Assembly (NCBI GenBank): GCA_963816145.1
Contig: CAWFJP010000004.1
Span: 320,001-384,000 of the forward strand
Source of the DNA: an uncultured delta proteobacterium
Lineage (GTDB): Bacteria > Desulfobacterota > Binatia > UBA9968
Length of the DNA stretch: 64,000 nt
Direction: 5' to 3'
The notes below the pieces were generated by a model, which was given only the letters and a program-made list of their open reading frames with translations, had not been told where the DNA came from and did not search any database. Below, piece by piece: positions 9,836 through 39,692 of this stretch (the stretch's first letter is position 1; the number at the start of each line of letters is the position of its first letter). The position numbers and the translations under genes were made by a program.

Positions 9836-9860
9836 GGCGCAGTTGCAGGCAAGAACCACA

Positions 9861-12182
9861 ATGATTTTACGACCGATCTCTTTTACGATCACCGCGCTGC
9901 TCGCGCTGGCGCCGTGGACCTCGTCTGTGGGCGCAGCCCAGGCGCCGCAACCGGGTGCTAATGATCCCGCGGCGGTAATTAACTTGCAGGCCGACAAGTT
10001 GTCGTCGAGTGACAGTGGCAATCAGATCGAAGCCACCGGCAATGTTGAGATCAAACGGGAATTAACTACGCTCAAGGCTAACGAACTGCGAATGAACCGG
10101 GCGACCCAGGATGTCGAAGCTGAGGGCCGGGTGACGCTGGACGATCCGGAATGGAAGATCAAGTCCGCCGACTCGATCCGCATGAACATGGAAAAGGAAA
10201 CCGGCGAGCTGCACAACGCCGACCTTTTCCTGGAACAGGGCCATATCAGCATGTCGGGGCGCCGCTTGGAGAAATTTGGCGGCCAGACCTATCACATCGA
10301 CGACGGCTTTTTTACCACCTGTCTGTGCGAATCCGGCGCGCCATCGTGGAAATTTTCCGCTGAGCAGATGGATCTCACCCTTCAGGGCACGGGAACGATC
10401 AAAAACGGTGTGTTCTACATCCTGGATTACCCGGTGCTCTACATTCCCTATGGATATTTCCCGCTACGCAGTGAGCGTCAGACCGGTTTACTATTTCCCA
10501 AAGTCGGCACCTCGAGCCACGACGGTTTTCGCTTTCTGCAACCCTTTTTTTGGGCGATCTCAAAAAACAGCGATGCTACGTTGTCCGCTGACATTGAGAC
10601 GAACTCGCGGTTTGGCGTCATCGGCGAATATCGCACACTTTTCGATCGCAACTCGGACTTCAAACTTGAATCATCGTATTTTAATGAAAATTGGCGAACC
10701 AACTACGACATAGCCGACCCAACCATCGCCGATCCGAATATTCCCAAACACCGCTGGAACCTTTTCGGCTCGCACCGTTATACCACGGCCTCCGATTGGC
10801 TTACCTACAGCGACACTGCGGCATACAGCGATGATTTGTTTACCCGTGAACTGATGGGGCGGCTGGATTTGTCGATTAGCCAGGAGGCGAATATTCTCCG
10901 CAGCCGTTACGGCGAGTCGCGCATGGGTTTGTTCAAAAACTGGGGCGATACCTTCGTCAAAGGGGAGTTCAATTTTTACCAAGACTTCATTCAGCCCGAT
11001 AAGACCACGTATTTGCGCACGCCGGAGGTTGGGTTTTGGGGCCGACGTTTATTCCCGGGATTTCCGTTGGAGCTGCGTTGGTCGGCGGATGGCATAAACT
11101 ATCTTCGGCGCGACCGCGGTGACGGTCTCCGTTTCGATCTCCGGCCGGAATTCGTGCTGCCGTTCAAACTCGCTTCGGTTGTGAACGGGTCATTGAGTGT
11201 CGCGCCACGCGAAACCTTCTATCATTTGTACAGCACGCCGGTGAATTCTACAGCGCATAATGTGTCACGCGAGCTGGTCGAAATTCGCAGTAATTTTAAC
11301 ACTGCGTTGAGCCGGGTCTTCGCGGTCGATAGCCTGGGCCTAAAGCAGATCAAGCATGTTTTGGAACCTGAGATCAGTTATCTATTTGTCCCGGGGGTCA
11401 ATCAAGACAAGATTCCCATTATGGACAACATCGATCGGGTTAACCGCCGCAATGTACTTACCTTTGCTGTCAATAACCGCCTATGGGGAAAATCCCCCAG
11501 TCCTCTCACCGATCAAGACTTAGACCGCAGTACCGAGTATCTTAGCCCGGCAGTGACGGGCGATGTCCAGGAGTTCGCATCGTTTCGGATGGCGTTGTCT
11601 TATGATATCGATAAGGAGCGCAATGGCAGCGATAGCCTGTCCGATCTCGATTTTCGTTTGCGTTTGACACCCCGGGGGTTTCTCGACCTTGATTTGATCG
11701 GCGGCTTGAACCCCGGACCATGGTCCATTACCCAGATGCTCGCCAGTGTGGCGATCACAGACCCGCGGCCTTTATTCCGGCGCTCGCTCGATGCCGATTT
11801 CAACCGGCCTAATACCTTTGGTTTGAGTTTTCACTTCTTGCGCCGCGGGCCAAATAGTTTTCTCGCCGATAATGCCAATGCCGACGTAGATTTGTGCTCA
11901 ACCACTCCGAACAACCCCAATTGCAAAAAAAACACCGTGGGAAATATCATCAACAATCTTTTATACCGTGTCACCGACAACCTGCTGTTCAATTTCAACA
12001 GTACTTACGACGTCCGGGATAGCCGCTTCATCGGTTTTCGGGCGATCAGTAAGTTTCTGTCGTTTTGCGAGTGTTGGACAGTGACCTTTGGTGTTTCGCA
12101 CAGCGTTAACCCGGATAAAACCAGCTTCAGTGTGGACTTCAGTTTACTCGGGCTGGGCAATCCGAAAACTTCATTGAAGTAG
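9861..12182 (+). CDS. lptD: LPS-assembly protein LptD
   Basis: Signal peptide, OstA-like N-domain (QADKL, FTTC), RQTGLLFP, KHVLEPEISY and a beta-barrel C-terminus with CECW. Confidence 0.9.
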   Translation: MILRPISFTITALLALAPWTSSVGAAQAPQPGANDPAAVINLQADKLSSSDSGNQIEATGNVEIKRELTTLKANELRMNRATQDVEAEGRVTLDDPEWKIKSADSIRMNMEKETGELHNADLFLEQGHISMSGRRLEKFGGQTYHIDDGFFTTCLCESGAPSWKFSAEQMDLTLQGTGTIKNGVFYILDYPVLYIPYGYFPLRSERQTGLLFPKVGTSSHDGFRFLQPFFWAISKNSDATLSADIETNSRFGVIGEYRTLFDRNSDFKLESSYFNENWRTNYDIADPTIADPNIPKHRWNLFGSHRYTTASDWLTYSDTAAYSDDLFTRELMGRLDLSISQEANILRSRYGESRMGLFKNWGDTFVKGEFNFYQDFIQPDKTTYLRTPEVGFWGRRLFPGFPLELRWSADGINYLRRDRGDGLRFDLRPEFVLPFKLASVVNGSLSVAPRETFYHLYSTPVNSTAHNVSRELVEIRSNFNTALSRVFAVDSLGLKQIKHVLEPEISYLFVPGVNQDKIPIMDNIDRVNRRNVLTFAVNNRLWGKSPSPLTDQDLDRSTEYLSPAVTGDVQEFASFRMALSYDIDKERNGSDSLSDLDFRLRLTPRGFLDLDLIGGLNPGPWSITQMLASVAITDPRPLFRRSLDADFNRPNTFGLSFHFLRRGPNSFLADNANADVDLCSTTPNNPNCKKNTVGNIINNLLYRVTDNLLFNFNSTYDVRDSRFIGFRAISKFLSFCECWTVTFGVSHSVNPDKTSFSVDFSLLGLGNPKTSLK

Positions 12183-12210: not shown

Positions 12211-13119
12211 TCAACTCCGGTCAACCTGCGATTGCCTGCGGTTAGCGTCCAGCATGCCGAGGTAGTGATAGATGCGGCCTTTGCTGCGATAGCGCTTACG
12301 CTCTTTCCCTATCAGAGTGTAAAAAACGTACTCGATGGCGACACGGGTGAGACTAAAGAGCATGGATGCTGTGCTACGTTTTCGAATCAGGAATCGGCTG
12401 CCGCCCTGCTGCCAGTGAATCTGTTTGAAATACTCCTCGGTCAAGCGCCGGCGGTCGACCCCATGGTAAACCATCGCCTGCGGCGCATAGCCGATGGCAA
12501 TGCCCGCGCGAGTCAGGCGGCGCGCGAAGTCGACGTCTTCCGAGGTCCCCGACGCGCCAGGCCCGAGGCGTTCGTCGAAGCCTCCGGCCCGGTCAAACGC
12601 GGTGCGAGAGACGAAGAAGTTGGCGCCGTTCAAGGAATGCACGGACCTTACGTCTCGCGGGTGTTCGAGTCTCGGGATCGTGCGATAGCGTTCAACCAAT
12701 TTGACGAGATCCGGATCGTTCTGGGCCGGTGCTTGCAACCGGATGGCCCCCTGTCCCGCCTCGAAGGTGCCGGTTCGAAAAAAATCATCGACGGCGGTGA
12801 GCCAATTCTTATCAACGACCACATCGTCGTCGAGAAAGGCGAAGACATCGCCGTTCGCCGCCTTGACGGCATCGTTAATCGCCGCGGATTTCCCGGGCCG
12901 TACTACGCCCAAGACTCGAAGCGTTATCGGAAAATCTTTGGCGACGTTGGCGGTGAAATCATCGGTGCCGTCATCCGAACCATTGTTGGCTACGATGACT
13001 TCCGGGCGAATCGCTCCGATATTGTCGGCGCCGCGCAGACTCTCTAAAAGCTCGCCGAGGGTCAGCTCGCGATTTTTCGTGGGGATGATGATGGAAAGAC
13101 TGAAAGATCGTGCATTCAT
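12211..13119 (-). CDS. glycosyltransferase family 2
   Basis: SIIIPTKNR, NNGSDD, AFLDDD, GGFDERLG, SEDVDF. Confidence 0.92.
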   Translation of the reverse strand: MNARSFSLSIIIPTKNRELTLGELLESLRGADNIGAIRPEVIVANNGSDDGTDDFTANVAKDFPITLRVLGVVRPGKSAAINDAVKAANGDVFAFLDDDVVVDKNWLTAVDDFFRTGTFEAGQGAIRLQAPAQNDPDLVKLVERYRTIPRLEHPRDVRSVHSLNGANFFVSRTAFDRAGGFDERLGPGASGTSEDVDFARRLTRAGIAIGYAPQAMVYHGVDRRRLTEEYFKQIHWQQGGSRFLIRKRSTASMLFSLTRVAIEYVFYTLIGKERKRYRSKGRIYHYLGMLDANRRQSQVDRS

Positions 13120-13710: not shown

Positions 13711-14478
13711 ATGACATCCCTATATCAGTACCGCGAGCTTATTCGCAATCTCGTTGTGAAGGATCTTAAGCTAAAATATCGGGATTCGACGATCGGTTTT
13801 ATCTGGTCGTTGGTGAATCCGCTGCTATTGATTCTTGTTTATAGCTTCGTTTTTAGCAACATCCTCAAGGGTGGCATACCGAACTTCTCGTATTTCTTAC
13901 TGATCGGTATCTTGCCTTGGAATTTTTTCGCTCAGTCGATCATGATGTCGACCGGTTCAATCCTGGACAATGGCGGACTGATTAGAAAAGTTGCCATGCC
14001 GATGGAGGTTTTTCCGGTCGCCACGGTACTCTTCAACTTGGTTCAACTTGTTCTGGCGTTATTGGTTTTTGCGCCTATGTCTTTCTGGTTCTTTCAAGTG
14101 CCGATGGCCTGGGTTACCCTATGGTTTTTCCCCTTGCTGATCTTGCACATGCTCTTTACCATTGGTCTGAGTTTCTTGATCTCGACAGCGACCATCTTTT
14201 ACCGTGATGTGCGCCATTTTGTCGAGATCGCCTTGACGCTGTTATTCTGGCTTACACCGGTTATTTACGATATTGGCAGCGTTCCGGAATCTTTCCGCTC
14301 GGTCATTTACTGGAATCCGCAGTCCTTCTTTATCCTGAGTTATCAAGACATTCTTTATCGTCAAGCGGCGCCTGAAAATTCTCGAGTCGCGATCTTGATA
14401 TTATTGACGGTGGCGTCACTGACGATCGGCTACCAAGTGCATCGTCATTATAAGGCTCGGTTTGCCGAAGAGGTTTGA
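13711..14478 (+). CDS. wzm: ABC-2 polysaccharide/O-antigen export permease Wzm
   Basis: DLKLKYRDSTIGFIWSLVNPL, LPWNFF, FYRDV, WLTPVIY, WNP. About six TM helices. Confidence 0.93.
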   Translation: MTSLYQYRELIRNLVVKDLKLKYRDSTIGFIWSLVNPLLLILVYSFVFSNILKGGIPNFSYFLLIGILPWNFFAQSIMMSTGSILDNGGLIRKVAMPMEVFPVATVLFNLVQLVLALLVFAPMSFWFFQVPMAWVTLWFFPLLILHMLFTIGLSFLISTATIFYRDVRHFVEIALTLLFWLTPVIYDIGSVPESFRSVIYWNPQSFFILSYQDILYRQAAPENSRVAILILLTVASLTIGYQVHRHYKARFAEEV

Positions 14479-14482
14479 GGAG

Positions 14483-15232
14483 ATGGCGGGTCGAATCGAT
14501 ATCGTCAGTGTATCCAAAGCGTTTTCGATTCGCCACAATCGCTCGAATTCGCTCAAATCGTCATTTGTCGGAATCTTTCACCCGCGTTACCAGGAGCGCG
14601 TGGAAGAGTTTTGGGCCCTGCGCGATATCAACTTGGAGATCCAGCCCGGTGAATCTTTCGGCATCATCGGTCGGAATGGCTCCGGCAAGAGCACGCTTTT
14701 GAGAATCATCGCGGGGATTTATTCCCCCTCGTCGGGCGAAATTCGCATGCCGAAAAATATCCGCGTCGGCGCCATGATCGAGCTCGGGGTGGGCTTTCAT
14801 CCGGAGCTAACCGGACGAGAAAATGTCTTTTTGGGTGCTTCGATCCACGGACTCTGTCGTAAGGAAATCGAGGCGCTGTATCCGGCCATCGTCGAGTTCG
14901 CGGAGTTGGAGGAGTTCATGGATACCGCGATGAAAAATTATTCCTCCGGCATGCAGGCGCGCCTCGGCTTCGCGTTGGCGGTTAATCTCAATCCCGATCT
15001 TTTTATCATCGATGAAGTCCTCTCCGTGGGAGACGAAGCCTTTCAGCAGAAATGCGTCAAGCAAATTGAAGCGTTTCAAGCCCTGGGCAAGACTATCATT
15101 TTCGTTTCACATAGCCCGGAGGTCGTCAAAAGCATTTGCAGTCGGGTCTGCGTCTTGGATCACGGCTCATTGGTCTATTTGGGAGAGGCTCAAGAGGCGA
15201 TTGAACATTATCACGCTCGCCTGCCGCATTAG
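14483..15232 (+). CDS. wzt: ABC polysaccharide export ATPase Wzt, without C-terminal carbohydrate-binding module
   Basis: GRNGSGKSTL, GFHPELTGREN, YSSGMQARL, IIDEVLSVGD, VSH. Ends right after the NBD (249 aa). Confidence 0.93.
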   Translation: MAGRIDIVSVSKAFSIRHNRSNSLKSSFVGIFHPRYQERVEEFWALRDINLEIQPGESFGIIGRNGSGKSTLLRIIAGIYSPSSGEIRMPKNIRVGAMIELGVGFHPELTGRENVFLGASIHGLCRKEIEALYPAIVEFAELEEFMDTAMKNYSSGMQARLGFALAVNLNPDLFIIDEVLSVGDEAFQQKCVKQIEAFQALGKTIIFVSHSPEVVKSICSRVCVLDHGSLVYLGEAQEAIEHYHARLPH

Positions 15233-15535
15233 ATATTGACTCGATAGTGTATCAATTCCCGCAATGGTTAGCCGAAAGATTTTCGAATATCACTTTGCGC
15301 TGGTACTCAACAGGCGAGCAACGGACCAAGAAGCAGAATTATAATGGGGGAAGTTCCTGCCATTAATTAAGCTGCCTGTCCGTCTGTCTCTTCCGCCGTT
15401 TTACCGCTACCACAAAACGGCTCTTTGCAGGTTATTTGCTTCGATATTAATCAGCCTCGCAATCCAAGTCGATAGCGTTTGCACCGATTTTGCGGGATCC
15501 CGGGTTACATGGTACTTTCGCCGGAAAGCGATGTC

Positions 15536-16018
15536 ATGAATTATGCCACCGATCCTCAGAGTCGTGCCGTGAGAGGGCAGATCTACTTGCTGCTAGTCGT
15601 GGCATTAGTCGCATACTTGGGAGGTTGTACGATGTCGGACGCTCAACCCACCGAGAAAAAGGCCGGATGGACAACGAAAGTCGCGCCGGAATTAATAAAT
15701 CTGTATGACGAATATTCGCGCTACCTGGCTTCAGGTAAGTCCGGCGAGTTCAAATCGACCCATTCGTTGGTACCGGTCATTGATGATCGTGTGGTGATCG
15801 ACGCGGTGGCGTCTGGTGATGCGACCATTCTCAAAGCGGACCTAGAGTCCCTCGGGATGCAACGCGCGGTTGCCTTCGGTCGCATCGTCTCAGGCCAGCT
15901 GCCAATTTTGGCAATCTCCCGTATGGCGACACTACCTAGCTTGAATTTTGCCAGGGCGGCCTCTGCCGTTTTGCAAGGCGGCGGATCTCCGGTTCGTCCT
16001 GGGCCGCTTCCTCAATAG
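15536..16018 (+). CDS. lipoprotein consisting of a stand-alone subtilase propeptide-like domain
   Basis: Hydrophobic stretch plus lipobox LGG-C. Core is 31/41 aa identical to the prodomain of the next gene. Start codon uncertain (15536 or 15569). Confidence 0.8.
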   Translation: MNYATDPQSRAVRGQIYLLLVVALVAYLGGCTMSDAQPTEKKAGWTTKVAPELINLYDEYSRYLASGKSGEFKSTHSLVPVIDDRVVIDAVASGDATILKADLESLGMQRAVAFGRIVSGQLPILAISRMATLPSLNFARAASAVLQGGGSPVRPGPLPQ

Positions 16019-16046
16019 TTGATTGGCAGACAACGAGGGAAATTGC

Positions 16047-18515
16047 ATGAAACGATGGGTTTTGGGTTTGTTTGCCGTCATTCTGCTCCCTTGCCTTGGC
16101 AGCAACATCGCGCAGGCTCAAGCCAATAAGAGTGACCCCATGGCCAAGCTAACGCAAAGCTTGGTAACTCTCCACGATCGCTTTACCACACACTTGGCAC
16201 AACGCAGCGCGGCGTCGTTTAGATCCGCTGATCCTTTAGTCTCGCTGGTGGCCGATCGTGTTGTCGTCGATGCGGTTGCTGCTGGTGATGTTGATTTACT
16301 TAAAGCAGATTTGGTGTCGTTGGGAATGCGCAATGCAGTCTCCTTTGGACGGGTCGTCTCGGGCCAGCTGCCTATCGCCGCGCTTCCCGCCGCCGCGGGA
16401 CTGGCAAACCTGGGGTTCGCACGATCCACCGCTGCCATAACCAGTGCCGGTAGCGTGACGAGCCAGGGCGATCAAGCGATCCGTTCCAATGTGGCGCGGG
16501 CCACTTACGGGGTGGATGGGAGCGGGGTCACAGTGGGAGCCCTGTCAGATAGCTTTAACTGTCTCGGCGGCGCCACGGCAGACATCACTAGCGGGGACCT
16601 ATCGCCAGTAACCGTGGTCCAGGAGATTGGGAGCTGCGGCGCCGGTACCGACGAGGGCCGGGCCATGCTGCAAATCGTCCATGACGTCGCCCCCGGGGCT
16701 AGTTTGGCCTTTGCCACTGCGTTTAATGGCTCGGCTTCTTTTGCGGCGAACATTCAGTCGCTCGCGGCGGCCGGAGCGAAAGTAATCGTCGATGATGTAA
16801 TTTATTTAGCCGAGCCAATGTTTCAGGACGGTATCATCGCCCAGGCGGTCAATAACGTGGTCTCGGGAGGTGCCGCTTATTTCTCGGCGGCCGGCAACCA
16901 AGGTCGCGACGGTTATGAAAGCGCCTTCCGGCCAGGTGATGTCTTCGCGGCCAACGCGTTTCCGGGTGCACCCGCTTTTCTCGGTGGCACAGCCCACAAT
17001 TTCAATGCCAGCGGCGGCAACGATCCTTTCCAAAGCATCACGATCCCGGCAGGTACCACTGTCTCTGTTAGCCTACAATGGGACTCGCCGTTTTTTTCAG
17101 CTTGCCCTCCATCGACAAGCAACTGCCAAAGGACGCAAAACAATCTCGACCTCTATATTTTAGATGCCTCTGCAAGCGTAGTCATAGCCGGAGTTACAAC
17201 CAACAATATCATCAGCGGCGATGCGGTCGAGCTCCTCGGAGTCATGGTCACCGGCTCAACGCCACTTACCGTGAATCTCATGATCGTCAATCGCTCGGGA
17301 CCTAACCCGGGTTTGATTAAGTACGTTTATTTTGTTTCTGGTGCAGCACCGACGATCAACGAGTACGCCACAAACAGCGGCACGCTCTACGGCCATGCCA
17401 ACGCAGTTGGCGCGGAATCGGTGGGTGCGGCTGCCTACTTTAACACTCCAGCATTCGGTGTTTCTCCGCCGGTTTTAAATTCCTATTCTTCATCAGGGTC
17501 GACCCCTATTCTTTTTGACTTGGCAGGTAACCGGCTTACCAATCCCGAACTCCGTGCCAAGCCGGAGATTGTCGCCCCGGATGGCGGCGACACGACATTC
17601 TTTGGCTCCCTATATCCAGATGGAAATGGATTCCCCAACTTCTTTGGCACGTCGGCCTCGGCGCCTCATGCGGCGGGTGTAGCGGCACTAATGTTACAGA
17701 GGAGACCGACGTTAGTGCCGGCCGGATTATACGCAAGTCTGGAAAGCACCGCGATTGATATGGGCGTGCCAGGCTTCGATAGTGACAGCGGATTTGGCCT
17801 TATTCAGGCCGATGCGGCCCTAGTGATAAACGAAGTTTTTGTTCGTCAACAGTATTTGGATTTTTTGGATCGGGAGCCGGATTCTGGGGGCTTTGCGGGC
17901 TGGGTGAATGTATTGGACAACGGCTTACCGAGGGCGAGTTTGATCGAAGCATTCATGGATTCGGGGGAATTTCACTTTAAGGGGGAATTCATCGCCCAGG
18001 TTTATTTGGGGATTTTGACTCGGGATGCTGAATATAGTGGATTTCGGGGTTGGTTAGGGTTATTGCTCGCAGGAGCATCTCCAGAGCAGATTGTACAGGC
18101 GTTTTTAGTCTCGGGTGAATTTCAGTCTAGGTTTGGCAGCAATCTAACCAACGCACAGTTTGTCGAGCGGATGTACAATAATATATTGCTACGGCCGTCA
18201 GATCCTGGGGGATTTAATGGTTGGGTACAGGTATTAAACAGCGGGCAGCTGACTAGGGCACAGGTGGCGTTGAGTTTTTTGGATTCGGGAGAGTTTCAGA
18301 ATCTGGATGTGAGCCAGAATAGGGTGGACCTATCGCTTTTGTATTTCGATATGCTGCGGCGGGATCCTGATGCTGGGAGTTTTTCGGCGTGGGTAGGGGA
18401 TCTCGATGCTGGAGTACCATTCACATCGGTGCTAGAGGGCTTTCTGAACTCTATCGAATATAAAACGCGAATTGCCGCACTGGTGGCATCCTTGCAATTT
18501 TCCTCTAGGCTCTGA
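16047..18515 (+). CDS. secreted S8/S53-like serine peptidase with C-terminal DUF4214-like repeats
   Basis: Signal peptide (AQA-QA), prodomain, GVTVGALSDS, TDEGRAM, SAAGN, FFGTSASAPH. The C-terminal ~220 aa are FV..Y...L.R.PD..G...W...L...F..S.EF repeats. Confidence 0.9.
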   Translation: MKRWVLGLFAVILLPCLGSNIAQAQANKSDPMAKLTQSLVTLHDRFTTHLAQRSAASFRSADPLVSLVADRVVVDAVAAGDVDLLKADLVSLGMRNAVSFGRVVSGQLPIAALPAAAGLANLGFARSTAAITSAGSVTSQGDQAIRSNVARATYGVDGSGVTVGALSDSFNCLGGATADITSGDLSPVTVVQEIGSCGAGTDEGRAMLQIVHDVAPGASLAFATAFNGSASFAANIQSLAAAGAKVIVDDVIYLAEPMFQDGIIAQAVNNVVSGGAAYFSAAGNQGRDGYESAFRPGDVFAANAFPGAPAFLGGTAHNFNASGGNDPFQSITIPAGTTVSVSLQWDSPFFSACPPSTSNCQRTQNNLDLYILDASASVVIAGVTTNNIISGDAVELLGVMVTGSTPLTVNLMIVNRSGPNPGLIKYVYFVSGAAPTINEYATNSGTLYGHANAVGAESVGAAAYFNTPAFGVSPPVLNSYSSSGSTPILFDLAGNRLTNPELRAKPEIVAPDGGDTTFFGSLYPDGNGFPNFFGTSASAPHAAGVAALMLQRRPTLVPAGLYASLESTAIDMGVPGFDSDSGFGLIQADAALVINEVFVRQQYLDFLDREPDSGGFAGWVNVLDNGLPRASLIEAFMDSGEFHFKGEFIAQVYLGILTRDAEYSGFRGWLGLLLAGASPEQIVQAFLVSGEFQSRFGSNLTNAQFVERMYNNILLRPSDPGGFNGWVQVLNSGQLTRAQVALSFLDSGEFQNLDVSQNRVDLSLLYFDMLRRDPDAGSFSAWVGDLDAGVPFTSVLEGFLNSIEYKTRIAALVASLQFSSRL
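17941..18418 (+). repeat. 478-bp direct repeat copy 1 (DUF4214-coding), near-identical to 22799-23276
   Basis: Manual alignment: 8 mismatches in 478 nt, no indels. Confidence 0.92.
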
Positions 18516-19506
18516 AAAGGTTTGGGAAATCGCATAGAGTGAAGTGATAAATTTGTTCAGTCGAGCTAGAAGTGTCCGGCAGGTTTCACAATAAAATCGG
18601 TTGGTTAGTGTTGTCGCACAACAGTTCGTTGGTTGACGCGTAGGTAAGGCGCTGGAACAAAGAATTATTCTCCAACGGTGCAATGCTCAGAATCTGTAAC
18701 TTTTCGTGCAAGGACAAATCTCAATTGAGACGCTAACGAACGCTGGCGACTAATTTGGGAATCTCTGAACAAGTCTTCTGTAAAGTCGTCTAAAATCCAA
18801 AACCGGTAAGAATGTCCAGTTTTTCAATGGGACAAAATCGCGGGAACAAGTGAATCGTTGTTGGTTGAGGTTCGACGGTCGCCAACATGCCGAGCGCAAT
18901 TTTTGCACCCTCCCAGAGAGGCCCTGGACTATCAAACCGGGTATTTTTTGTTACAACAGAAAAACTACACATCGGGTCCGAGACGGATTGCGTAAAAGCG
19001 GTGCGGCTCGCGAGCGTCGCCATTAGGTCAAGACTTGCCGCGATTCGTTCCAATCCACCTTACCCGGACCAAGATCATAACGGGCACCGATAAGCATTCT
19101 CGGCTGAATGGTTCCTCATGCAGCAGGTCAGCGCCCCCAATAGTAACTAAACAAGGCCGAAACAGCTTTGCTACAGTAGCGCGTTAGTGAATCGTTGTTA
19201 GGCACCGGATGAATATAGCTGTTATTACCAAATAGCTTCTATTAATTACAGCAATTACACAATAGTTACTAGGCCTTCATAAGCATAGCTCGGGAAAAAA
19301 TTTTGTCGATGACTCTTACTTCATCGGTGGCGAGGATCGTAGTTGTAGCTAAACGCCTACGCATCACCTGTCTGATTTTCGAGTCACCAACTGACAAAAC
19401 TGTTCCTTCTTCACCATTCGATGGTCAGAACTGAACAAAAAAATATAACCGGTTTCCCCCAGGGAACAGCGGAGCGTCACAGACGGCAAGGGTGTGCGTT
19501 TAGAGT

Positions 19507-19549
19507 TGACACAAGTGTCATGTCCGAAGGCTGTGGCATCAACCCTGCT
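19507..19549 (+). promoter_or_regulatory. palindrome TGACAC-AA-GTGTCA plus putative sigma54 promoter TGGCATCAACCCTGCT
   Basis: Perfect 6-bp-arm palindrome at 19507-19520. GG/GC at -24/-12 spacing at 19534-19549, about 110 nt upstream of the riboswitch. Confidence 0.55.
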
Positions 19550-19658
19550 TAAGACGATCCAAGAAATTTTTAAAATTGTTGCACGGGTTTAATAGAAAAT
19601 GCGGGTTGGTTGCATAAGTGCTCGAAAACTTTCAACCAAAGCACTCGATAAGACTAAC

Positions 19659-19754
19659 GGTCGAAAAAGGCAATCCATCCGCAAGGGTAGGACGCGAAGT
19701 CACTGACCTGAGTTCCCCTACGCCGGAATACGGTAGCGGGGTTGCCATGCGACC
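19659..19754 (+). ncRNA. cyclic di-GMP-I (GEMM-I) riboswitch, variant
   Basis: P1 GGTCG/CGACC. GGCAATCCATCC-GCAA-GGGTAGGACGCGAAG (P2 with GNRA loop), then P3 ending GGTAGCGGGGTTGCC, as in the V. cholerae Vc2 architecture. Lies in the 5' UTR of the gene at 19809. Confidence 0.88.
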
Positions 19755-19808
19755 CCAGTTGACCTTTTCAACGACTGCGGGTCATGCACGCGAAGGAGGT
19801 TCTCTGGG

Positions 19809-20906
19809 ATGAGCCGTCTGTATTTTCTATGTCGAACAATAATTGTCATCGCAACTGTGTTGGCCGCGGGTGTGGCACTAGCAGATCGGGTCGAAGCAGC
19901 GAGCCTTCGTCTTGGCTGGAGCGACAACTCTAGCAACGAAAGTGGATTCAAAATTGAACGTCGCGCAGCCGGTGGAAGTTATGCTCAGCTTACGACTGTC
20001 GGCGCAAATGTTACGTCATACACTGACTCCGGCCTGACCTCTGGCCGGACATATTGCTATATTGTTCGCGCCTTCAATTCCGCCGGCACCTCGGTCCCAA
20101 CCAAGGAAGCTTGCGCGACAACTGCGTCAACATCCACGAGTAGCAGCACATCGTCAAGCACCACCACGACAACCTCGACCGGGACGACGGGTTCTACGTC
20201 AACTTCCGGCGGCAGCTCGGCGCTAACACTATTCTCTGATAATCGTGTGTTCGTCTCTCAGCAGTATTTAGACTTTCTGGATCGAGCGCCGGACTCTGTA
20301 GGATTTGCTGCATGGGTCAATGCACTGAACAGCGGGTTTCCGAAGGCGGGCCTAATCGAGAGCTTCATGGATTCTGGAGAATCCCGCATTAAGGGGAAAT
20401 TCATTGCTCAAACTTACCTGGGGATTTTTAGTCGGGATGCCGGGCATAACGAGTTTCGTGATTGGTTGGGAGCGTTGCTGCAGGGGATGTCACGGGAACA
20501 GATCGTGCAGTTTTTTTTGAACTCCGATGAGTTTAAGTCTCGGTTTGGCAGTGGTCTGACGAACAGACAGTTTGTGGAGAGGATGTACAATAACATACTG
20601 CTGCGTTCGTCTGATTATGCGGGATTAAATGGTTGGGTGTGGGCACTAAACAACGGGCAGGTGACCAGGGCGCAGGTGGCGCTGAGTTTTTTGGATTCGG
20701 ATGAATTTCAGAATCTTAGTGCCAGTCAGAACCGGGTGGACATAGCGCTTTTGTATTTCGACATGTTGCGGCGGGATCCTGATGCTGGGGGTTTTTCGGG
20801 GTGGGTCGAAGCTCTCAATTCGGGCGTACCGCTTACATCGGCAATCGATGCTTTCCTAATGTCCCGTGAATATCAAGCTCAATTCTGTAATTGCGTTCTA
20901 CAATAG
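19809..20906 (+). CDS. secreted fibronectin type III protein with Ser/Thr linker and C-terminal DUF4214-like repeats
   Basis: RBS AGGAGG, signal peptide, WSDNSSNESGFKIERR...YTDSGL...YCYIVRAFNSAG (FN3), TTASTSTSSSTSSSTTTTTSTG linker, then the same repeat module. Confidence 0.9.
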   Translation: MSRLYFLCRTIIVIATVLAAGVALADRVEAASLRLGWSDNSSNESGFKIERRAAGGSYAQLTTVGANVTSYTDSGLTSGRTYCYIVRAFNSAGTSVPTKEACATTASTSTSSSTSSSTTTTTSTGTTGSTSTSGGSSALTLFSDNRVFVSQQYLDFLDRAPDSVGFAAWVNALNSGFPKAGLIESFMDSGESRIKGKFIAQTYLGIFSRDAGHNEFRDWLGALLQGMSREQIVQFFLNSDEFKSRFGSGLTNRQFVERMYNNILLRSSDYAGLNGWVWALNNGQVTRAQVALSFLDSDEFQNLSASQNRVDIALLYFDMLRRDPDAGGFSGWVEALNSGVPLTSAIDAFLMSREYQAQFCNCVLQ

Positions 20907-21432
20907 ACGTTTAATGCCAGGCCGACTTAGTGCCGTAAACGATCCTATCAAAGTCGTTGGTTATACGACTACATGGAACGAGATTTCGAAGACGCCTCTG
21001 CCCGTTGTGAATGCTTGCCAGCGCCTGGGCTTTGCGATTGCAGGCAGCAAGCTCAACCAATGGCACTTTGACCGCGTACCCGCTCTTCCATTCCCGACAG
21101 ATCGATAAGCCCTCAGCGAAAAACGACCGACCATACGGAATTCTTCCGGCGGAATTTTTCCCAGCCGTGTTCTTCCGTCGGCAATCCGCTCACGCCGCAA
21201 GGCTAGAGCAGCTCGTTTTATGAACATTGCCGGGCTGAGTCTTGACCCTCAAGACCTCCGATCTGAACCAGACGGGTAAGGAACGGATCGTAGGAAGGAT
21301 TTTCCGATGGTGCAGTAAAATCCGAAACGCCCACCAATTGCCGGCCCCAGTACTCACCAGGTTGCTGTCGACCTCGAATGCTTCCGAGTTGACTTGATTG
21401 TTGCGAATAAGGCGTTCTATAAATTTCCATTC

Positions 21433-23334
21433 ATGGTATCTGGATCGTTTAACTTAAGGGGGCGGGGCAAGCTCAGATTATGCGAGATCGCAATTCTCTG
21501 GATCATTAATTTTGTTCTTTTACCCTTCTCAAATGCACAAACGCTAACCGACCCATCGTTGCGAGTGAGCGAGATTGTCGCTGGGTTGAGCCAGCCCACC
21601 GCGATGGCGTTTATCGGACCGGGCGACATTCTTGTGCTGCAAAAGGGAGATGGACAGGTTAAACGGGTCGTTGACGGGGTGCTGCAAGCGGCCCCGGTCC
21701 TAGATGTAACAGTCGACAATCAATCTGAACGTGGACTTTTGGGGATCGCCGTTCATCCGAACTTTCCAGCGACACCGTTTGTTTATCTTTACTACACACA
21801 AAGCAGCACCTCGACGGATACATCCGGAAACCCGTCGTCGCTCGGCAATCGCGTCTATCGTTACGCCTGGACTGGTAACGCTCTGGTCAGTCCCACTTTG
21901 ATATTGGATTTGCCGGTTACACCAGGACCGAATCATAACGGGGGCACTATGACTTTCGGTCCGGACGGCAAGCTCTATGTGGTCATCGGAGACCTGAACC
22001 GTGATGGACAACTGCAGAATTTCTCCAATGGTCCCGGCCCAGACGATACGGGGGTGATCTTCCGCATCAATGATGATGGTCGCGTTCCGATTGATAATCC
22101 ATTCTTTTCTCAAGGGGGCAATTTAGCAAAGTACTATGCGTACGGGATTCGCAACAGCTTCGGCCTGGCCGTCGATCCACTTACCGGCGAACTTTGGGAT
22201 ACCGAGAACGGACCGAACAACTTCGATGAGATTAATCTGGTGCAGCCGGGCTTCAACAGCGGCTGGAAGCGGATCATGGGTCCGGTGAGTCGTGATGCGG
22301 AAGGAACAAGTGATTTGGTTCAGTTTCCCGGCTCGCATTACGCTGACCCGAAGTTTTCCTGGCTAAATACTGTGGGACCAACTGCTATCGCTTTCATGAA
22401 ATCCCCTCTCCTGGGTGCCAAATACCAGAACGATATTTTTGTTGGAGATATCAATAACGGGAACCTCTACCATTTCGGAGTTAGCGCGACCCGAGATGGG
22501 TTTGACTTTACGAGTCTGGGACTCGCGGATCTGGTAGCGGACAGCAGTGCAGAACTCGAAGAAATTATTTTGGGAACAGGGTTCGGCGGAATCACGGATC
22601 TCAAAGTTGGACCAGACGGCTTGTTGTATGTCCTCTCATTCGGGGTGGGTAAGATATTCGTTTTATCCAGCGACTCCACGACCGAAAACGCGATCTTTGT
22701 TCGTCGGCAATATTTGGATTTTTTAGATCGGGAGCCTGGTCCGGGAGAGTTTACTGCTTGGCTAAACGCGTTGGATAGTGGGTTGGCGAGATCTAGTATG
22801 ATCGAAGCATTCATGGATTCGGGGGAATTTGACTTTAAGGGGGAATTCATCGCCCAGGTTTATTTGGGGATTTTGACTCGGGATGCTGACTATGGTGGAT
22901 TTCGGGGTTGGTTAGGGTTATTGCTCGCAGGAGCATCTGCAGAGCAGATTGTGCAGGCGTTTTTAGTCTCGGGTGAATTTCAGTCTAGGTTTGGCAGCAA
23001 TCTAACCAACGCACAGTTTGTCGAGCGGATGTACAATAATATATTGCTACGGCCGTCTGATCCTGGGGGATTTAATGGTTGGGTACAGGTATTAAACGGC
23101 GGGCAGCTGACTAGGGCACAGGTGGCGTTGAGTTTTTTGGATTCGGGAGAGTTTCAGAATCTGGATGTGAGCCAGAATAGGGTGGACCTATCGCTTTTGT
23201 ATTTCGATATGCTGCGGCGGGATCCTGATGCTGGGAGTTTTTCGGCGTGGGTAGGGGAGCTCGATGCTGGAGTACCTCTCACATCGATAATCGATGCATT
23301 TCTAAATTCCGCTGAATATAAGGCCCGGTTATAG
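21433..23334 (+). CDS. secreted PQQ-dependent glucose/sorbosone (aldose sugar) dehydrogenase with C-terminal DUF4214-like repeats
   Basis: ERGLLGIAVHPNF, NHNGG, FGPDGKLYV, AYGIRNSFGL, TENGP...DEIN. Signal peptide ending SNA-QT. Start uncertain (21394 or 21433). Confidence 0.9.
   Translation: MVSGSFNLRGRGKLRLCEIAILWIINFVLLPFSNAQTLTDPSLRVSEIVAGLSQPTAMAFIGPGDILVLQKGDGQVKRVVDGVLQAAPVLDVTVDNQSERGLLGIAVHPNFPATPFVYLYYTQSSTSTDTSGNPSSLGNRVYRYAWTGNALVSPTLILDLPVTPGPNHNGGTMTFGPDGKLYVVIGDLNRDGQLQNFSNGPGPDDTGVIFRINDDGRVPIDNPFFSQGGNLAKYYAYGIRNSFGLAVDPLTGELWDTENGPNNFDEINLVQPGFNSGWKRIMGPVSRDAEGTSDLVQFPGSHYADPKFSWLNTVGPTAIAFMKSPLLGAKYQNDIFVGDINNGNLYHFGVSATRDGFDFTSLGLADLVADSSAELEEIILGTGFGGITDLKVGPDGLLYVLSFGVGKIFVLSSDSTTENAIFVRRQYLDFLDREPGPGEFTAWLNALDSGLARSSMIEAFMDSGEFDFKGEFIAQVYLGILTRDADYGGFRGWLGLLLAGASAEQIVQAFLVSGEFQSRFGSNLTNAQFVERMYNNILLRPSDPGGFNGWVQVLNGGQLTRAQVALSFLDSGEFQNLDVSQNRVDLSLLYFDMLRRDPDAGSFSAWVGELDAGVPLTSIIDAFLNSAEYKARL
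22799..23276 (+). repeat. 478-bp direct repeat copy 2 (DUF4214-coding)
   Basis: Manual alignment with 17941-18418. Confidence 0.92.
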
Positions 23335-23472: not shown

Positions 23473-25536
23473 GTGCGGAGCTTACATACGGTGATGGGAG
23501 AGAGCGAAAAATCTAAATTAAGACGAGACACGGTTGGCTATAGCCTTTTCCCGCACGGGACTAGGCGTGGCGAAGCTCTCGGCTTCATCAGAAACGCGAT
23601 TTACTTTCTTTTTCGTGGTCCTTCGGCAATTATTTACCAACCGCGGCGAATCGTGCGGACGATTCGCTCTGCGTTGTTTGTCCTGCGCAGAGGCGGGCTC
23701 AAGGCTTTGAGGCTTCGCCTTATGTACAGAGTCAGCGGCCAATTGGACTACGATTCTTGGATCAAAATCCACGATACCTTGACCGCTGCCGATCGCTGTG
23801 CGATCCGCCAGCATATCGAGCGGCTCGATTACAAACCTGTCATTTCGGTGATCATGCCCGTCTACAACACCGATCGGAGGTGGTTGCGAGCGGCCATAGA
23901 TTCCGTTGTTGAGCAACTTTACGACAAATGGGAGCTTTGTATCGCAGACGATGCGTCGACCGAATTTCACGTTAAGAGAATCCTCGAGGAATACCGGACT
24001 AAGGACCGGCGGATAAAGGTCATCTTCCGCGAAAAAAACGGTCATATCTCGGTTGCTTCTAACAGCGCGCTTGAACTTGCGACGGGGAAATTCGTGGCGC
24101 TACTTGACCACGATGATGTGCTGCCTGAGCATGCCTTATATACGATAGCGGTCGAGATGAACGACCATCGGGACGCAGATCTAATCTATAGTGATGAGGA
24201 CAAGATTAACGATGAAGGCCGCCGCTACGACCCCTATTTCAAACCAGACTGGAACCCAGATCTTTTTTTGTCTCAGAACTTGGTCAGCCATCTGGGAGTT
24301 TACCGCACCTCTATTATTAGACAGATCGGCGGGTTCAGGCCCGGTTACGAGGGCAGCCAGGATTGGGATCTTGCAATGCGGGTAGTCGAGAGTATCCCAC
24401 TTGTCCATATACGACATGTTCCTCACATCCTATATCACTGGCGCGCAATACGAGGATCGGCTGCTCTTACGGAGGATCAGAAGAACTACGTCCACGCAGC
24501 GCAGTTCAAGACGCTTCAATCTAACTTTGATCGTAGTGGCGACGATGTGGCAATTCTCCCGGCGGTGGGCGGGTACTGGCGCATCCGATATCCCCTGCCA
24601 CAGTCAGCGCCTCATGTCACGTTGCTTATTCCCACTCGAAATGGCCTCAGCCTTTTGCAACGATGCTTGGGCAGTCTTTTTGACAAAACAACTTATCCCA
24701 ACTTTGACGTAATCATACTTGACAATCAGTCGGATGATCCGGATATGTTGGTTTACCTCAGTGAGTTGGAGAGAACGAAGGCCGTCCAAATACTCCGCTA
24801 TGACGCACCGTTCAATTACGCCGCGATCAACAATTACGGGGTTCGACATGCGCGTGGAGAGATCATCGGTCTGCTCAACAATGATGTTGAGGTGATCTCA
24901 CCTGATTGGCTGGAAGAAATGGTAACGCATGCTCTCCGACCCGATATCGGCGCGGTAGGGGCGATGTTGTATTTTCCTGATGACACCATTCAGCATGCTG
25001 GTGTCATCCTTGGCCTCGGTGTGTATGGGGTGGCGGCCCATCCATATCAGCGTAGGCCACGAGGCTTGCAGGGCCAGATGGGGCGTGCGCTACTTGTGCA
25101 AAATCTTACTGCTGTTACTGCTGCCTGTTTAGTTTTGCGACGAGCCGTTTTCGAGGAGGTGGCAGGGATGGATGAACTCAACTTACCGGTAGCATTCAAC
25201 GACGTAGATTTATGTCTGCGCATTCGAGAAGCCGGATATAGGAATCTGTGGACTCCTTACGCGGAACTTTATCATCGCGAGTCGGCTAGTCGTGGATTTG
25301 ACGACATTCCGAATAAAAAAGTCCGTTTTCAAAAGGAGAGGGATTACATGATAAGCCGCTGGGGGGAAGTTTTGGTGAGCGATCCCGCTTATAACCCCAA
25401 TTTGGCACTGGACCAGGACGGCTTTATGCTTGCCTATCCTCCACGAGTTGCAAAACCCTGGCTTGCGGAGGAAGTTCGGCCGGGAGTAAAGGCGACGACC
25501 CAAAGTGCCGCCGCCTTTGAACGAGACTTCTCATAA
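23473..25536 (+). CDS. dual-domain GT2 glycosyltransferase (RfbC-like O-antigen polymerase type)
   Basis: ISVIMPVYNT, LDHDD, YSDEDK, FKPDWNPD, GSQDWDL. Second domain with LNNDVEV, AFNDVDLCL, HRESASRG, DPAYNPN. Confidence 0.93.
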   Translation: MRSLHTVMGESEKSKLRRDTVGYSLFPHGTRRGEALGFIRNAIYFLFRGPSAIIYQPRRIVRTIRSALFVLRRGGLKALRLRLMYRVSGQLDYDSWIKIHDTLTAADRCAIRQHIERLDYKPVISVIMPVYNTDRRWLRAAIDSVVEQLYDKWELCIADDASTEFHVKRILEEYRTKDRRIKVIFREKNGHISVASNSALELATGKFVALLDHDDVLPEHALYTIAVEMNDHRDADLIYSDEDKINDEGRRYDPYFKPDWNPDLFLSQNLVSHLGVYRTSIIRQIGGFRPGYEGSQDWDLAMRVVESIPLVHIRHVPHILYHWRAIRGSAALTEDQKNYVHAAQFKTLQSNFDRSGDDVAILPAVGGYWRIRYPLPQSAPHVTLLIPTRNGLSLLQRCLGSLFDKTTYPNFDVIILDNQSDDPDMLVYLSELERTKAVQILRYDAPFNYAAINNYGVRHARGEIIGLLNNDVEVISPDWLEEMVTHALRPDIGAVGAMLYFPDDTIQHAGVILGLGVYGVAAHPYQRRPRGLQGQMGRALLVQNLTAVTAACLVLRRAVFEEVAGMDELNLPVAFNDVDLCLRIREAGYRNLWTPYAELYHRESASRGFDDIPNKKVRFQKERDYMISRWGEVLVSDPAYNPNLALDQDGFMLAYPPRVAKPWLAEEVRPGVKATTQSAAAFERDFS

Positions 25537-25548
25537 AGTGCCGGTGAC

Positions 25549-27498: not shown

Positions 27499-27635
27499 TC
27501 GTTGTCGTCGGTTCAAGGCCGTGTTGCGGCTCTGGACGAATTCGCCGCGGGTACTGTAAGGTGTTCAATTCCAGTTGACGGGTTATTATCACACGTGGTC
27601 CTGATTCTGTCACGAAGCCGGAAGGATTGGTAAAC

Positions 27636-28580
27636 ATGGCTATCAGCGGTCAAGAACGTTGGGACAAAGCATTCAGCAGTGATCACGCAAAGCCTGAGCA
27701 AATCCGCGCCATCTACACATTGGCGTCTGAACTATACTGGCATCTTTATGGCAACCGCTGCTTTGGCAATACCGGCAGTGAATACGGGTGGCTCTCGTGG
27801 CTTTATCGGGTGTACGGGCATCCACGGCCGCGCCGTGTACTCGAGCTCGGCAGCGGAAACGGTGATTTGCTGTTGGACCTGCAACGCATGAATTTTGCCG
27901 ACCAATACGTAGGTATTGATGTCTCCGCCGTTGGTGTAGAGGTCTCTCAACAAAAGGCGACCGAGGCGGGCATCTCGAACGTTCGATTTGAGGTGGGCGA
28001 TTTGAATCAGCTCCAATTAGCTCCGCTGTGCTACGATATGATTCTGGCGCAGATGTGCATCCACCACATCGAGAATCTCGAACACCTTTTTGCACAGGTA
28101 GCGCGTGCGCTTACACCCGATGGCCTATTCGCCATCTGTGACTTTGTAGGTCCCAGCCGATGGCAATTTACCCGGATGCAAATTCTGCTCGCAAATGCTC
28201 TGCTTTACTGCGTACCAGATCGATTGAAGGTAAGTCACCCTGAGGGGAACATTAAAGGTCGACTTAAGCGACCTACTATCGGTGAGATGCTGGCGATGGA
28301 TGCGTCCGAGGCGGTTCGTTCCGAGGAGATTTTACAGGTGTTCAAGCAATACTTTCGCGTCGAGTCTGTGATCGACTTCGGTGGCAGCGTTTCGATCCCC
28401 GTTTTAGATAGGATTATTAGCAACTTTCATGCAGGGGACCTAACCAGTGTTAGATGGCTTAAGTTTGTACTTTGGACAGATCATTGGGCGCGCCGTCTAC
28501 GTCTGGTTCCGCGGGTTAATCTGGTACTCGCAGGGCGCCCACGCAATGATGTGCGTAACACGTCTTTATCTACGGGATAG
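27636..28580 (+). CDS. class I SAM-dependent methyltransferase
   Basis: VLELGSGNG, GIDVS, IHHIENLE, DFVGPSRWQ, SEAVRS. Confidence 0.88.
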   Translation: MAISGQERWDKAFSSDHAKPEQIRAIYTLASELYWHLYGNRCFGNTGSEYGWLSWLYRVYGHPRPRRVLELGSGNGDLLLDLQRMNFADQYVGIDVSAVGVEVSQQKATEAGISNVRFEVGDLNQLQLAPLCYDMILAQMCIHHIENLEHLFAQVARALTPDGLFAICDFVGPSRWQFTRMQILLANALLYCVPDRLKVSHPEGNIKGRLKRPTIGEMLAMDASEAVRSEEILQVFKQYFRVESVIDFGGSVSIPVLDRIISNFHAGDLTSVRWLKFVLWTDHWARRLRLVPRVNLVLAGRPRNDVRNTSLSTG

Positions 28581-28689
28581 AGAGCACCCAAGCTATCAAG
28601 TCGCGGCATAAGCCGAGGTGCAACATGCGGGGAGACGCAGTTTAAGTCTTGGGTCTAGAAGCCGCGACGGAAAAATGACGACCGGATAT

Positions 28690-28884
28690 CAAGTCAGGAG
28701 TTTTTACCGCAAACTTGTGACTCTGGCGAGACCGCTGGTCTTCTCTAGGAAGGTCTATGAAACAGATCCTCTCGCGTGCCTGAAGTGCCCAAGCGATGCT
28801 TATCAATCCAAATTTCGGAACCAGAGAATCGTCGCTCTAATGAGGCACCTGAAGCCAAGGCAAAGCTCTAGTTTGGTCAGCTAG
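28690..28884 (+). mobile_element. decayed C-terminal fragment of an IS91-family-like transposase
   Basis: LARPLVFSRKVYETDPLACLKC...LMRHL resembles the WARL..KVYE.DPL.CP.C...IL.HL tail of these transposases. Confidence 0.55.
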
Positions 28885-28948
28885 GTAGCCGGGTTTCGCA
28901 GAGCAACGAATCGCGCCATTTTAGTTGTAATCAAAGTGGAGCGTTTAT

Positions 28949-31313: not shown

Positions 31314-31325
31314 AGGTTCAGGCAG

Positions 31326-31988: not shown

Positions 31989-32025
31989 GAAACCCTGAAG
32001 CTATGATCTGAAAAGCAAACCTTTG

Positions 32026-32961: not shown

Positions 32962-32972
32962 CCCAAACATCC

Positions 32973-39680: not shown

Positions 39681-39692
39681 GGCACGTGTAAT

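Follow-up and report, generated by a model that had tools for sequence, protein, structure and literature searches.

In a 64,000-nucleotide stretch of contig CAWFJP010000004.1 (the whole of it hereafter called the window), three genes encode unrelated proteins with Sec-like N-termini, namely a subtilase, a protein with a fibronectin type III (FN3) domain and a beta-propeller protein of the GSDH (glucose/sorbosone dehydrogenase) family, and each protein ends in a copy of the same 215-residue module of four DUF4214 repeats. The genes stand inside a glycan locus, between the ABC exporter genes wzm-wzt and a run of glycosyltransferase genes. The source organism is a diderm and the tagged lineage is Binatia-like; among close homologues, the only named one bears the label Candidatus Binatia. 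We propose that the module, here called the tag, is a portable retention module carried by many unrelated Sec-exported proteins, that it would hold its cargoes non-covalently on an envelope glycan, and that its ligand would be the O-polysaccharide which the Wzm/Wzt locus around the genes makes and exports. In this way the cell would keep the protease, the FN3 protein and the sugar dehydrogenase on it and not lose them by diffusion. Retention on an envelope glycan, that is, glycan-anchored display, appears to be the best single reading of the sequence data and a plausible one, with a probability of about 45%; from the same data we infer that the ligand is a glycan, and the one of this locus. 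Passage of the tagged proteins across the outer membrane, by a type II secretion system (T2SS) or otherwise, is presumed. A first-pass annotation, made from the sequence alone, had seen here a glycan-binding anchor that displays T2SS-exported enzymes, and this interpretation was supported in part.

Three tagged proteins within a glycan locus

The first-pass annotation had described three unrelated exported cargoes with a common four-repeat tail of about 215 residues. Pfam assigned the cargoes to Peptidase_S8, fn3 and GSDH, respectively, and the tail was found at the three predicted starts, with four DUF4214 stretches in each protein (Table 1). All three N-termini read as Sec-type signals, having a charged start, a hydrophobic run and AQA, VEA or SNA before the likely cleavage site; these calls were made by reading the sequence and by a crude heuristic of our own. 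The true start of the subtilase is likely the ATG at 16047 (MKRW...). The Ser/Thr-rich linker of the FN3 protein was placed at about 20115-20219 from the translation, and a match of the GSDH protein to the NCBIfam model non_repeat_PQQ stayed under the cut-off.

The tail had been called DUF4214-like. The Pfam family DUF4214 (PF13946) matched at 148-163 bits, in four stretches per protein or module, and because these scores are well above the gathering score of 23.2, the module is DUF4214 proper, with E values from 6.2e-44 to 2.3e-47 for the tagged proteins. Its four internal repeats align on the pattern Y-x3-L-x-R-x-P/A-D-x2-G-x3-W ... F-x2-S-x-E-F. The three window modules share 69-87% protein identity and are aromatic-rich and cysteine-free; repeat finding gave a spacing of 2412 and 2446 nt between their starts. 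When one module was compared with the window by tblastn, these three copies only were recovered (E 1e-141, 2e-126 and 2e-95), the next match having an E value of 1.8. Models of SLH, CWB2 and choline-binding repeats matched no window protein (Pfam, E<=0.01), and neither Por_Secre_tail nor HemolysinCabind of Pfam matched the three tagged proteins.

As annotated, the tagged genes lie between wzm-wzt (13711-15232) and the glycosyltransferases of families 2 and 4 (GT2 and GT4), which begin at 23473. Upstream, Pfam gave the order trp operon, Mur ligase, lptD, divergent GT2, wzm and wzt; downstream, the glycosyltransferase region extends over about 24 kb and includes at least seven ORFs with methyltransferase domains (Pfam, NCBIfam). 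Matches of the wzm product to the NCBIfam Wzm/KpsM models were weak and under the cut-off, and the carbohydrate-binding domain Wzt_C was not found by Pfam in the window Wzt. The elements by which an ABC-dependent O-polysaccharide locus is recognized were all present: an ABC-2 permease with an ATPase next to it, an initiating phosphoglycosyltransferase (NCBIfam WcaJ_sugtrans, 473.6 bits, above the cut-off of 410.75; also Pfam Bac_transf) and a protein of the ligase family (Pfam Wzy_C, 68.4 bits versus a cut-off of 31.7). The product of the locus is therefore probably the O-antigen of a lipopolysaccharide (LPS), and the gene content of 27627-46182 suggests a methylated polymer with an N-acetylated 4-amino-6-deoxyhexose. 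Such a polymer would loosely resemble the PerNAc / 3-O-methyl-glucose O-antigen that is bound by the S-layer protein RsaA.

The T2SS cluster that had been noted at the far end of the locus was found there, running from gspE to gspM and beginning 31 kb downstream of the tagged genes. Its members matched the Pfam families T2SSE, T2SSF, T2SSJ, T2SSK, T2SSL/PilN and T2SSM; NCBIfam matches to GspH/XpsH were under their cut-offs, and GspG and GspI were identified from the ORFs. No secretin (GspD) was seen between gspM and the window end at 64000, and Pfam found neither RTX repeats nor genes of a type I secretion system (T1SS) in the window.

Table 1. Positions of the tagged genes, their tags and other features in the window
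Feature	Position	Strand	Basis or remark
lptD, left flank of glycan locus	9843..12182	+	Pfam LptD, LptD_2, LptD_N
Family 2 glycosyltransferase, divergent from rest of locus	12211..13119	-	Pfam Glycos_transf_2, E 6.9e-23
wzm, ABC-2 permease of glycan exporter	13711..14478	+	Pfam ABC2_membrane, E 1.5e-19
wzt, ABC ATPase, short form, 256 aa	14462..15232	+	Pfam ABC_tran, E 1.4e-22
179-aa ORF, lipoprotein-like (LGGC motif)	15479..16018	+	lipobox read by eye
Subtilase with C-terminal 4x DUF4214, 830 aa	16023..18515	+	Peptidase_S8 E 6.3e-13; DUF4214 E 1.6e-44
Tag copy 1, 215 aa, four DUF4214 repeats	17829..18473	+	DUF4214 E 9.1e-48
Gene-conversion tract, subtilase tag / GSDH tag	17941..18418 / 22799..23276	+ / +	8 mismatches/478 nt
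Stretch without ORF >=100 aa (longest 87 aa)	18516..19658		1.1 kb, ORF list
c-di-GMP-I riboswitch aptamer	19659..19749	+	Rfam RF01051, 58.8 bits (gathering score 35), E 6e-09, full-length model
FN3 domain, Ser/Thr-rich linker and C-terminal 4x DUF4214, 365 aa	19809..20906	+	fn3 E 6.9e-07; DUF4214 E 2.3e-47
Tag copy 2	20241..20885	+	DUF4214 E 1.7e-48
GSDH-family beta-propeller with C-terminal 4x DUF4214, 646 aa	21394..23334	+	GSDH E 1.7e-56; DUF4214 E 6.2e-44
Tag copy 3	22687..23331	+	DUF4214 repeats
Glycan synthesis genes (GT2, GT4 first)	23473..47638	+	Pfam, NCBIfam
NeuD/VioB-type acetyltransferase	31326	+	
DesI-like 4-aminotransferase	32973	+	NCBIfam 550 bits, under cut-off 650
gmd	45193	+	
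WcaJ-type initiating phosphoglycosyltransferase and O-antigen-ligase-family protein	51168..53863	+	NCBIfam, Pfam
T2SS genes gspE, F, G, H, I, J, K, L, M	54328..62579	+	Pfam, NCBIfam, ORF reading

Portability, related loci and local features

A search among 4558 candidates for longer proteins carrying the module gave 255 matches at E<=1e-3, and the listing covers the best 120 of these. The counts that follow refer to the best 87 of the 255, which match at 54-93% identity, 84 of them nearly full-length and three partial. Within this set the tag was joined to at least nine Pfam cargo families; by our own Pfam count, GSDH occurred in 26 proteins, subtilase in 15, the InlB B-repeat in 10, PKD in four, and Kelch and phosphoesterase in two each, in addition to Calx-beta, FG-GAP and DUF5122 beta-propeller, and DUF4214 was the sole Pfam family in 24. 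A signal-like N-terminus was detected heuristically in 53 of the 87, and most of the other 34 are evidently N-terminally truncated fragments. These data bear out the earlier proposal of a portable module on unrelated exported cargoes.

The annotation had further described the module as C-terminal. This held for 82 of the 87 proteins, in which no more than 21 residues, and often only 0-2, come between the end of the module and the C-terminus, but not for four others, in which it stands at the N-terminus, directly after the signal peptide (P0077 and P0078), or internally (P0076 and P0084). Since the module works at either protein end, it is a binding or assembly module and not a terminal secretion signal; a C-terminal secretion signal was ruled out by the N-terminal and internal copies. 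The mostly terminal position and the T2SS cluster in the window would also suit a sorting or secretion signal in a broader sense, which would serve the outer-membrane step in the manner of the C-terminal domain of the type IX secretion system (T9SS) or of a T2SS recognition element. Such a role is very improbable, however, given the N-terminal and internal copies, the further residues that follow the array in T1SS-type proteins (see below), the occurrence of the module in monoderms, its size of 215 residues in four repeats, which is unlike known signals, and the missing Por_Secre_tail match in the window's tagged proteins.

Related loci were collected by a genome scan with two peptide patterns, which may miss tagged genes; it gave 49 pattern matches, 15 of them confirmed, at nine loci. 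Seven of the nine come from close relatives (four metagenome-assembled genomes, MAGs), and the 138 ORFs of these seven were scanned with Pfam. The window-like order was kept in L001, L004 and L006, where the Mur ligase, LptD and the divergent GT2 (the counterpart of 12211..13119) are followed by tagged genes and glycosyltransferases. Ahead of the tagged genes, wzm-wzt were found in L001 and L004; no wzm-wzt was found within the 10-kb flanks of L006. In L003 the setting is rearranged, and three tagged genes stand directly upstream of wzm-wzt. Placement in a glycan locus was thus observed for four of the seven loci and in all four MAGs. The cargo varies between the genomes, with FG-GAP in L004 and with an InlB-repeat protein and a 540-aa protein without an assigned family in L003 and L006. 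T2SS genes were not found within 10 kb in the related loci; as the T2SS is 31 kb off in the window, the 10-kb flanks of the relatives are uninformative on this linkage.

The Wzt of L001 is 78% identical to that of the window. Wzt_C is present on the Wzt of L004 (7347-8597) and absent from the Wzt of the window, L001 and L003; because this domain varies among close relatives that keep tagged genes, the export mode or the polymer cap differs among them. Tagged genes split into two ORFs were also observed, namely a GSDH gene in L003 (10873-12766), an InlB-repeat gene in L006 (7089-8311) and a beta-helix gene in L007 (12891-14967), and these splits reflect frameshifts, decay to pseudogenes or errors of assembly.

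A tree of 15 modules brought together tags of one locus and did not sort them by cargo. In the window, the tags of the subtilase and the GSDH protein paired with 87% identity and a support of 100/100, and other pairs within a locus reached 94% (L001), 87% (540-aa and GSDH proteins of L003) and 83% (InlB and GSDH proteins of L006); GSDH cargo orthologues are 74-91% identical across genomes. The tags of L002 and L005 grouped apart from those of L003, which belongs to the same MAG, and the tag of L007 apart from those of L001. The paired tags of the window differ at 8 of 478 positions over tag nt 113-590, against about 62-70% identity on either side (34 mismatches over the opening 112 nt, 21 over the closing 55 nt). 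This 478-nt stretch is clearly a gene-conversion tract, and a recent one.

A riboswitch aptamer for cyclic di-GMP (c-di-GMP) sits 60 nt upstream of the FN3 gene, and a strong ribosome-binding site, GAAGGAGG, lies between them at 19793-19800, ahead of the ATG at 19809. In a narrower search, the model of the GGC variant riboswitch scored 56.2, just short of its cut-off of 59. Folding of the riboswitch region was no better than that of shuffled sequences (z = -1.43), and a scan of the related loci L001-L007 with Rfam gave no riboswitch. Control of the FN3 member by c-di-GMP fits a surface or matrix protein. The 1.1-kb length of the ORF-poor stretch ahead of the aptamer (18516-19658) was explained by nothing found: GC is 0.479 across 18001-20000, the segment 18516-19808 had no plasmid match, and nine intergenic stretches of the window, this segment included, had no match to the proteins of the homologue search.

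The 179-aa ORF ahead of the subtilase gene encodes a paralogue of the N-terminal 140 residues of the subtilase (41% identity over 144 aa, E 4e-16, BLASTP). It had no Pfam or NCBIfam match, and could be a membrane-tethered copy of the subtilase pro-region that acts as an inhibitor or chaperone. Within the glycan locus, a 609-aa protein (43009-44838, plus strand) with a coiled-coil N-terminus and many hydrophobic segments likewise matched no Pfam or NCBIfam family. Inverted repeats were absent from the window, and direct repeats were limited to the tag in its three copies and a single short family of 25 nt. Sites resembling promoters or terminators did not clearly exceed what shuffled sequence would give.

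What the module may bind

Several findings weigh against retention on the glycan of the locus, and those on genomic setting, the wider family, structural kinship, composition and cargo are given here in turn. As for genomic setting, three of the seven related loci (L002, L005 and L007) lie outside glycan loci, so that the first-pass expectation of tagged genes in the glycan loci of relatives was upheld for every MAG but only for part of the loci. The distant loci L008 (Acidimicrobiales) and L009 (Rhodospirillaceae) are outside glycan loci too, and those loci that are syntenic may represent a single arrangement passed on by descent. Moreover, the tags are homogenized per locus and not per genome, and therefore give no evidence of co-evolution with a genome-wide ligand. 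These features would be expected if there were no glycan link at all, and a locally duplicating family occupied a recombination-prone, low-GC variable region in which synteny merely records descent. GC is indeed lowered in the region, mostly 0.47-0.56 over 10001-48000 (0.59 at 26-28 kb), compared with 0.57-0.61 in the first 10 kb and 0.54-0.59 downstream of the glycan region; lowered GC is common in variable surface-polysaccharide loci. On the other hand, cargo turns over and the adjacency to wzm-wzt persists, even in the rearranged L003.

The same question was put to the wider family on plasmids. Alphaproteobacterial plasmids carry DUF4214 arrays (28 records, 27-36% identity) that are homologous to the window module (hhalign probability 99.85%). 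RTX repeats occurred on 13 of the 20 plasmid proteins scanned, with CAP, FG-GAP, M10 or Calx-beta as cargo, and most of the scanned proteins continue for 100-150 more residues after the array, as T1SS substrates require. One match per genus (n=12) was compared in its neighbourhood with a control stretch of 20 kb half a replicon away (n=11, a 32-kb plasmid being too small for a control). Polysaccharide loci were found in 8 of the 12 DUF4214 neighbourhoods and in 5 of the 11 controls; with so many positive controls, the association is not separable from background and was dropped as evidence for linkage, and it adds to the points against a glycan ligand and in favour of mere descent. An ABC permease-ATPase pair lay within 10 kb of 4 of the 12 matches versus none of the 11 controls, and on the three replicons >500 kb the outcome was yes, yes and no for the matches and no throughout for the controls. 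These two comparisons alone lean toward the expected association.

Clusters of one to five RTX-DUF4214 genes stand by glycosyltransferases on roseobacter and Paracoccaceae plasmids (L010, L012, L014 and L021); a polysaccharide ABC exporter lies directly beside the RTX-DUF4214 genes on L010, L014 and L021, and rhamnose genes are present too on L014. Roseobacter plasmids of this kind have been shown to be necessary for attachment, their core being a rhamnose operon and a polysaccharide ABC exporter (PMC5030684). The terms RTX, hemolysin, type I secretion and adhesin are all absent from that text by a term search.

One functional study on DUF4214 was found in the literature, a preprint of September 2026 (bioRxiv 10.64898/2026.09.02.748959). 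It describes Psh, an RTX-DUF4214 protein of Pseudomonas putida KT2440, which is exported via a restored T1SS and blocks many phages. The psh gene adjoins an O-antigen operon, and more than 80% of its relatives adjoin O-antigen operons or a T1SS, the O-antigen neighbourhood being found mainly in Gammaproteobacteria; relatives without RTX carry peptidase, peroxidase or Ig-like cargo. Psh is proposed there to bind O-antigen at the cell surface on the basis of Boltz-2 docking, and a computed basis of this kind has to be set with the points against. Other literature mentions DUF4214 surface proteins in passing, and in the literature on Rv3811 DUF4214 is not mentioned. The independent report of the same association in this preprint, the ABC pairs near the plasmid matches, the replicons >500 kb and the persistent wzm-wzt adjacency together make an absence of any glycan link quite improbable, despite the homogenization by locus, the three loci elsewhere, the high plasmid background and the lowered GC.

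The family is very large: with one module as query, 27,247 cluster representatives were retrieved at E<=1e-3, and limits of 1e-10 and 1e-30 gave 11,214 and 594, respectively. The ESM Atlas was queried with P0172, a near stand-alone module about 39-41% identical to that of the window, for which the atlas has a confident model (pTM 0.78). Its structural neighbours combine DUF4214 with Glucosaminidase (53 members), Amidase_2 (57) and Peptidase_M23 (70), mostly in Actinomycetota, and further neighbours, from Acidobacteriota, are fusions with Calx-beta, M10 and NHL; an M23-DUF4214 gene was found on an Iamia plasmid. Actinomycetota fusions of a hydrolase with DUF4214 were seen both in these clusters and at L018 (5521-6729). 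In peptidoglycan hydrolases, the position of this fusion is usually held by a wall-binding module, and by this analogy the Actinomycetota fusions would be the strongest independent pointer to an envelope polymer as the ligand of DUF4214. That DUF4214 also occurs in monoderms, which have no LPS, counts at the same time against an O-polysaccharide as its ligand. So does the absence of any match to the module in phage records or PHROGs, where no phage receptor-binding protein with the module was found.

RsaA binds a PerNAc-Man O-antigen with Ca2+ through its helical N-terminal domain (PMC6978808), and the annotation had taken this domain to be related to DUF4214. The domain is represented by the Pfam family RsaA_NTD (PF19198, cut-off 27 bits). 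Rescanning of the six DUF4214 proteins that bear a precomputed PF19198 label among the 120 listed, all from other lineages, gave 37.8, 32.2, 30.4, 27.4 and 27.2 bits for five of them and 26.3 bits for the sixth; the matches fall on a DUF4214 repeat and always at model positions of about 55-122. Weak matches occurred in 2 of the 20 plasmid proteins and in 5 of the 44 members of alignment A4, and in a language-model search, a lead only, the RsaA_NTD cluster came second (0.80) among the named non-DUF4214 look-alikes of P0172. The suggested relation thus has some basis in five proteins of other lineages but not in the window clade, where none of 14 modules matched PF19198 at E<=10. Nor were RsaA chains in the PDB ever retrieved at E<=10 by profiles A1, A4 and A5 or by three single proteins. 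Both negative results count against the proposal, and the homology of RsaA and DUF4214 is weakly supported and unproven.

The PDB searches returned phycobilisome linkers and RTX proteins instead. Among solved structures, linker domains stand closest to the module (ApcE in 7eyd; E 5e-05 and 4.7e-08), and phycobilisome linkers bind protein, not sugar. This kinship speaks for another possibility, namely that the module serves in protein-protein docking or assembly and would fix its cargoes to a protein scaffold, be it an outer-membrane protein, an S-layer or one another. Of 44 family members, 28 gave weak matches to PBS_linker_poly, as did 11 of the 14 modules from the window clade, and the residues conserved in the repeats (R, P/D, G, W and S-x-E-F) recur in the ApcE alignment, for which reason they may be structural. 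The window modules, however, scored only 12.4, 21.0 and 17.0 bits with PF00427, below its gathering score of 28.7, and the ApcE profile matches suggest remote homology only; the Psh preprint places DUF4214 and the phycobilisome linkers in the same Gene3D superfamily (bioRxiv 10.64898/2026.09.02.748959). No candidate scaffold gene accompanies the tags in related loci, and the peptidoglycan-hydrolase fusions of Actinomycetota and the position in a glycan locus fit a glycan ligand better. Docking to protein is accordingly unlikely, although it is the strongest competitor of glycan-anchored display.

The composition of the modules is also to be considered. They are acidic (pI 4.2-5.2), which is counted here among the adverse points; an acidic, aromatic-rich composition would suit an extracellular, possibly cation-bridged binder, and proves nothing. 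A last adverse point comes from the cargo. GSDH-family enzymes are typically periplasmic, and the module might bind the glycan only as a means of substrate targeting, on proteins that are periplasmic or released and act on the polymer, be it nascent or mature, with no display at the surface. The location of the genes between exporter and glycosyltransferases would agree with this, as would the fact that no closely linked secretin or other outer-membrane translocon was seen in the window. Yet the FN3, InlB-repeat, PKD, Kelch, FG-GAP and Calx-beta cargoes look like surface or adhesive proteins and not like glycan-processing ones, the DUF4214 proteins of T1SS type in Alphaproteobacteria have a design suited to leaving the cell, and c-di-GMP control suits surface or matrix proteins. 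Targeting to a substrate is therefore improbable, more so than docking to protein.

Comparison with known systems and significance

Glycan-anchored display by the window proteins has its nearest counterpart in Psh. Psh has a DUF4214 array near its C-terminus and a gene next to O-antigen genes, both of which are found in the window. Psh carries RTX repeats and uses a T1SS, whereas the window proteins have Sec signals, no RTX repeats and no T1SS gene; and Psh is a single shielding protein, whereas the window has several proteins with one common tag. The window is hence a Sec-type, multi-cargo variant of an idea already proposed by one preprint for T1SS proteins. RsaA's N-terminal domain (PDB 6T72) resembles the tag in being helical and acidic, and ties a secreted protein non-covalently to O-antigen; this anchor stands at the N-terminus, depends on Ca, is secreted by a T1SS and adjoins a domain that forms a lattice, unlike the C-terminal module of the Sec-like window proteins. 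The phycobilisome linkers (PF00427), the nearest solved sequence relatives, are cytoplasmic and bind within phycobiliprotein rings, unlike the exported proteins of the window.

Two further systems resemble the window in design. In the T9SS of Bacteroidota, unrelated Sec-exported cargoes with a common C-terminal domain end up on A-LPS, and the likeness to the window lies in such cargoes and such a domain. The T9SS domain, however, is a secretion signal in the form of a short beta-sandwich; it is cleaved off, and a covalent link takes its place. SLH, CWB2 and choline-binding modules are repeats common to unrelated surface proteins, they bind wall glycopolymers non-covalently, and their genes are often near the synthesis genes of the bound polymer. 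They have no sequence relation to the window module and belong to a cell wall without an outer membrane, so that the resemblance is functional only. SLH anchoring is described in PMC12175726.

A wider proposal can be drawn from these comparisons, in which DUF4214 would be a general, non-covalent anchor to envelope glycans in many bacteria, distantly homologous to the domain by which RsaA binds O-antigen. In the candidate-phylum lineage of the window it would serve as an interchangeable tag that attaches a whole set of Sec-exported enzymes and adhesin-like proteins to the O-polysaccharide, the tag genes moving and recombining within the glycan locus and c-di-GMP determining which member is displayed. 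On the present sequence evidence this generalization is possible but doubtful, and clearly less probable than retention on the glycan as such.

If the tag is indeed a glycan anchor, thousands of proteins of the very large DUF4214 family would receive a functional assignment, and the place of the tagged genes in the variable O-antigen region would be explained. Diderms would then have a general route by which secreted enzymes are kept on the surface without lipid anchors, autotransporters or a T9SS, and the module would offer a compact tag for surface display. Furthermore, the display of enzymes on the surface would be linked to c-di-GMP signalling.

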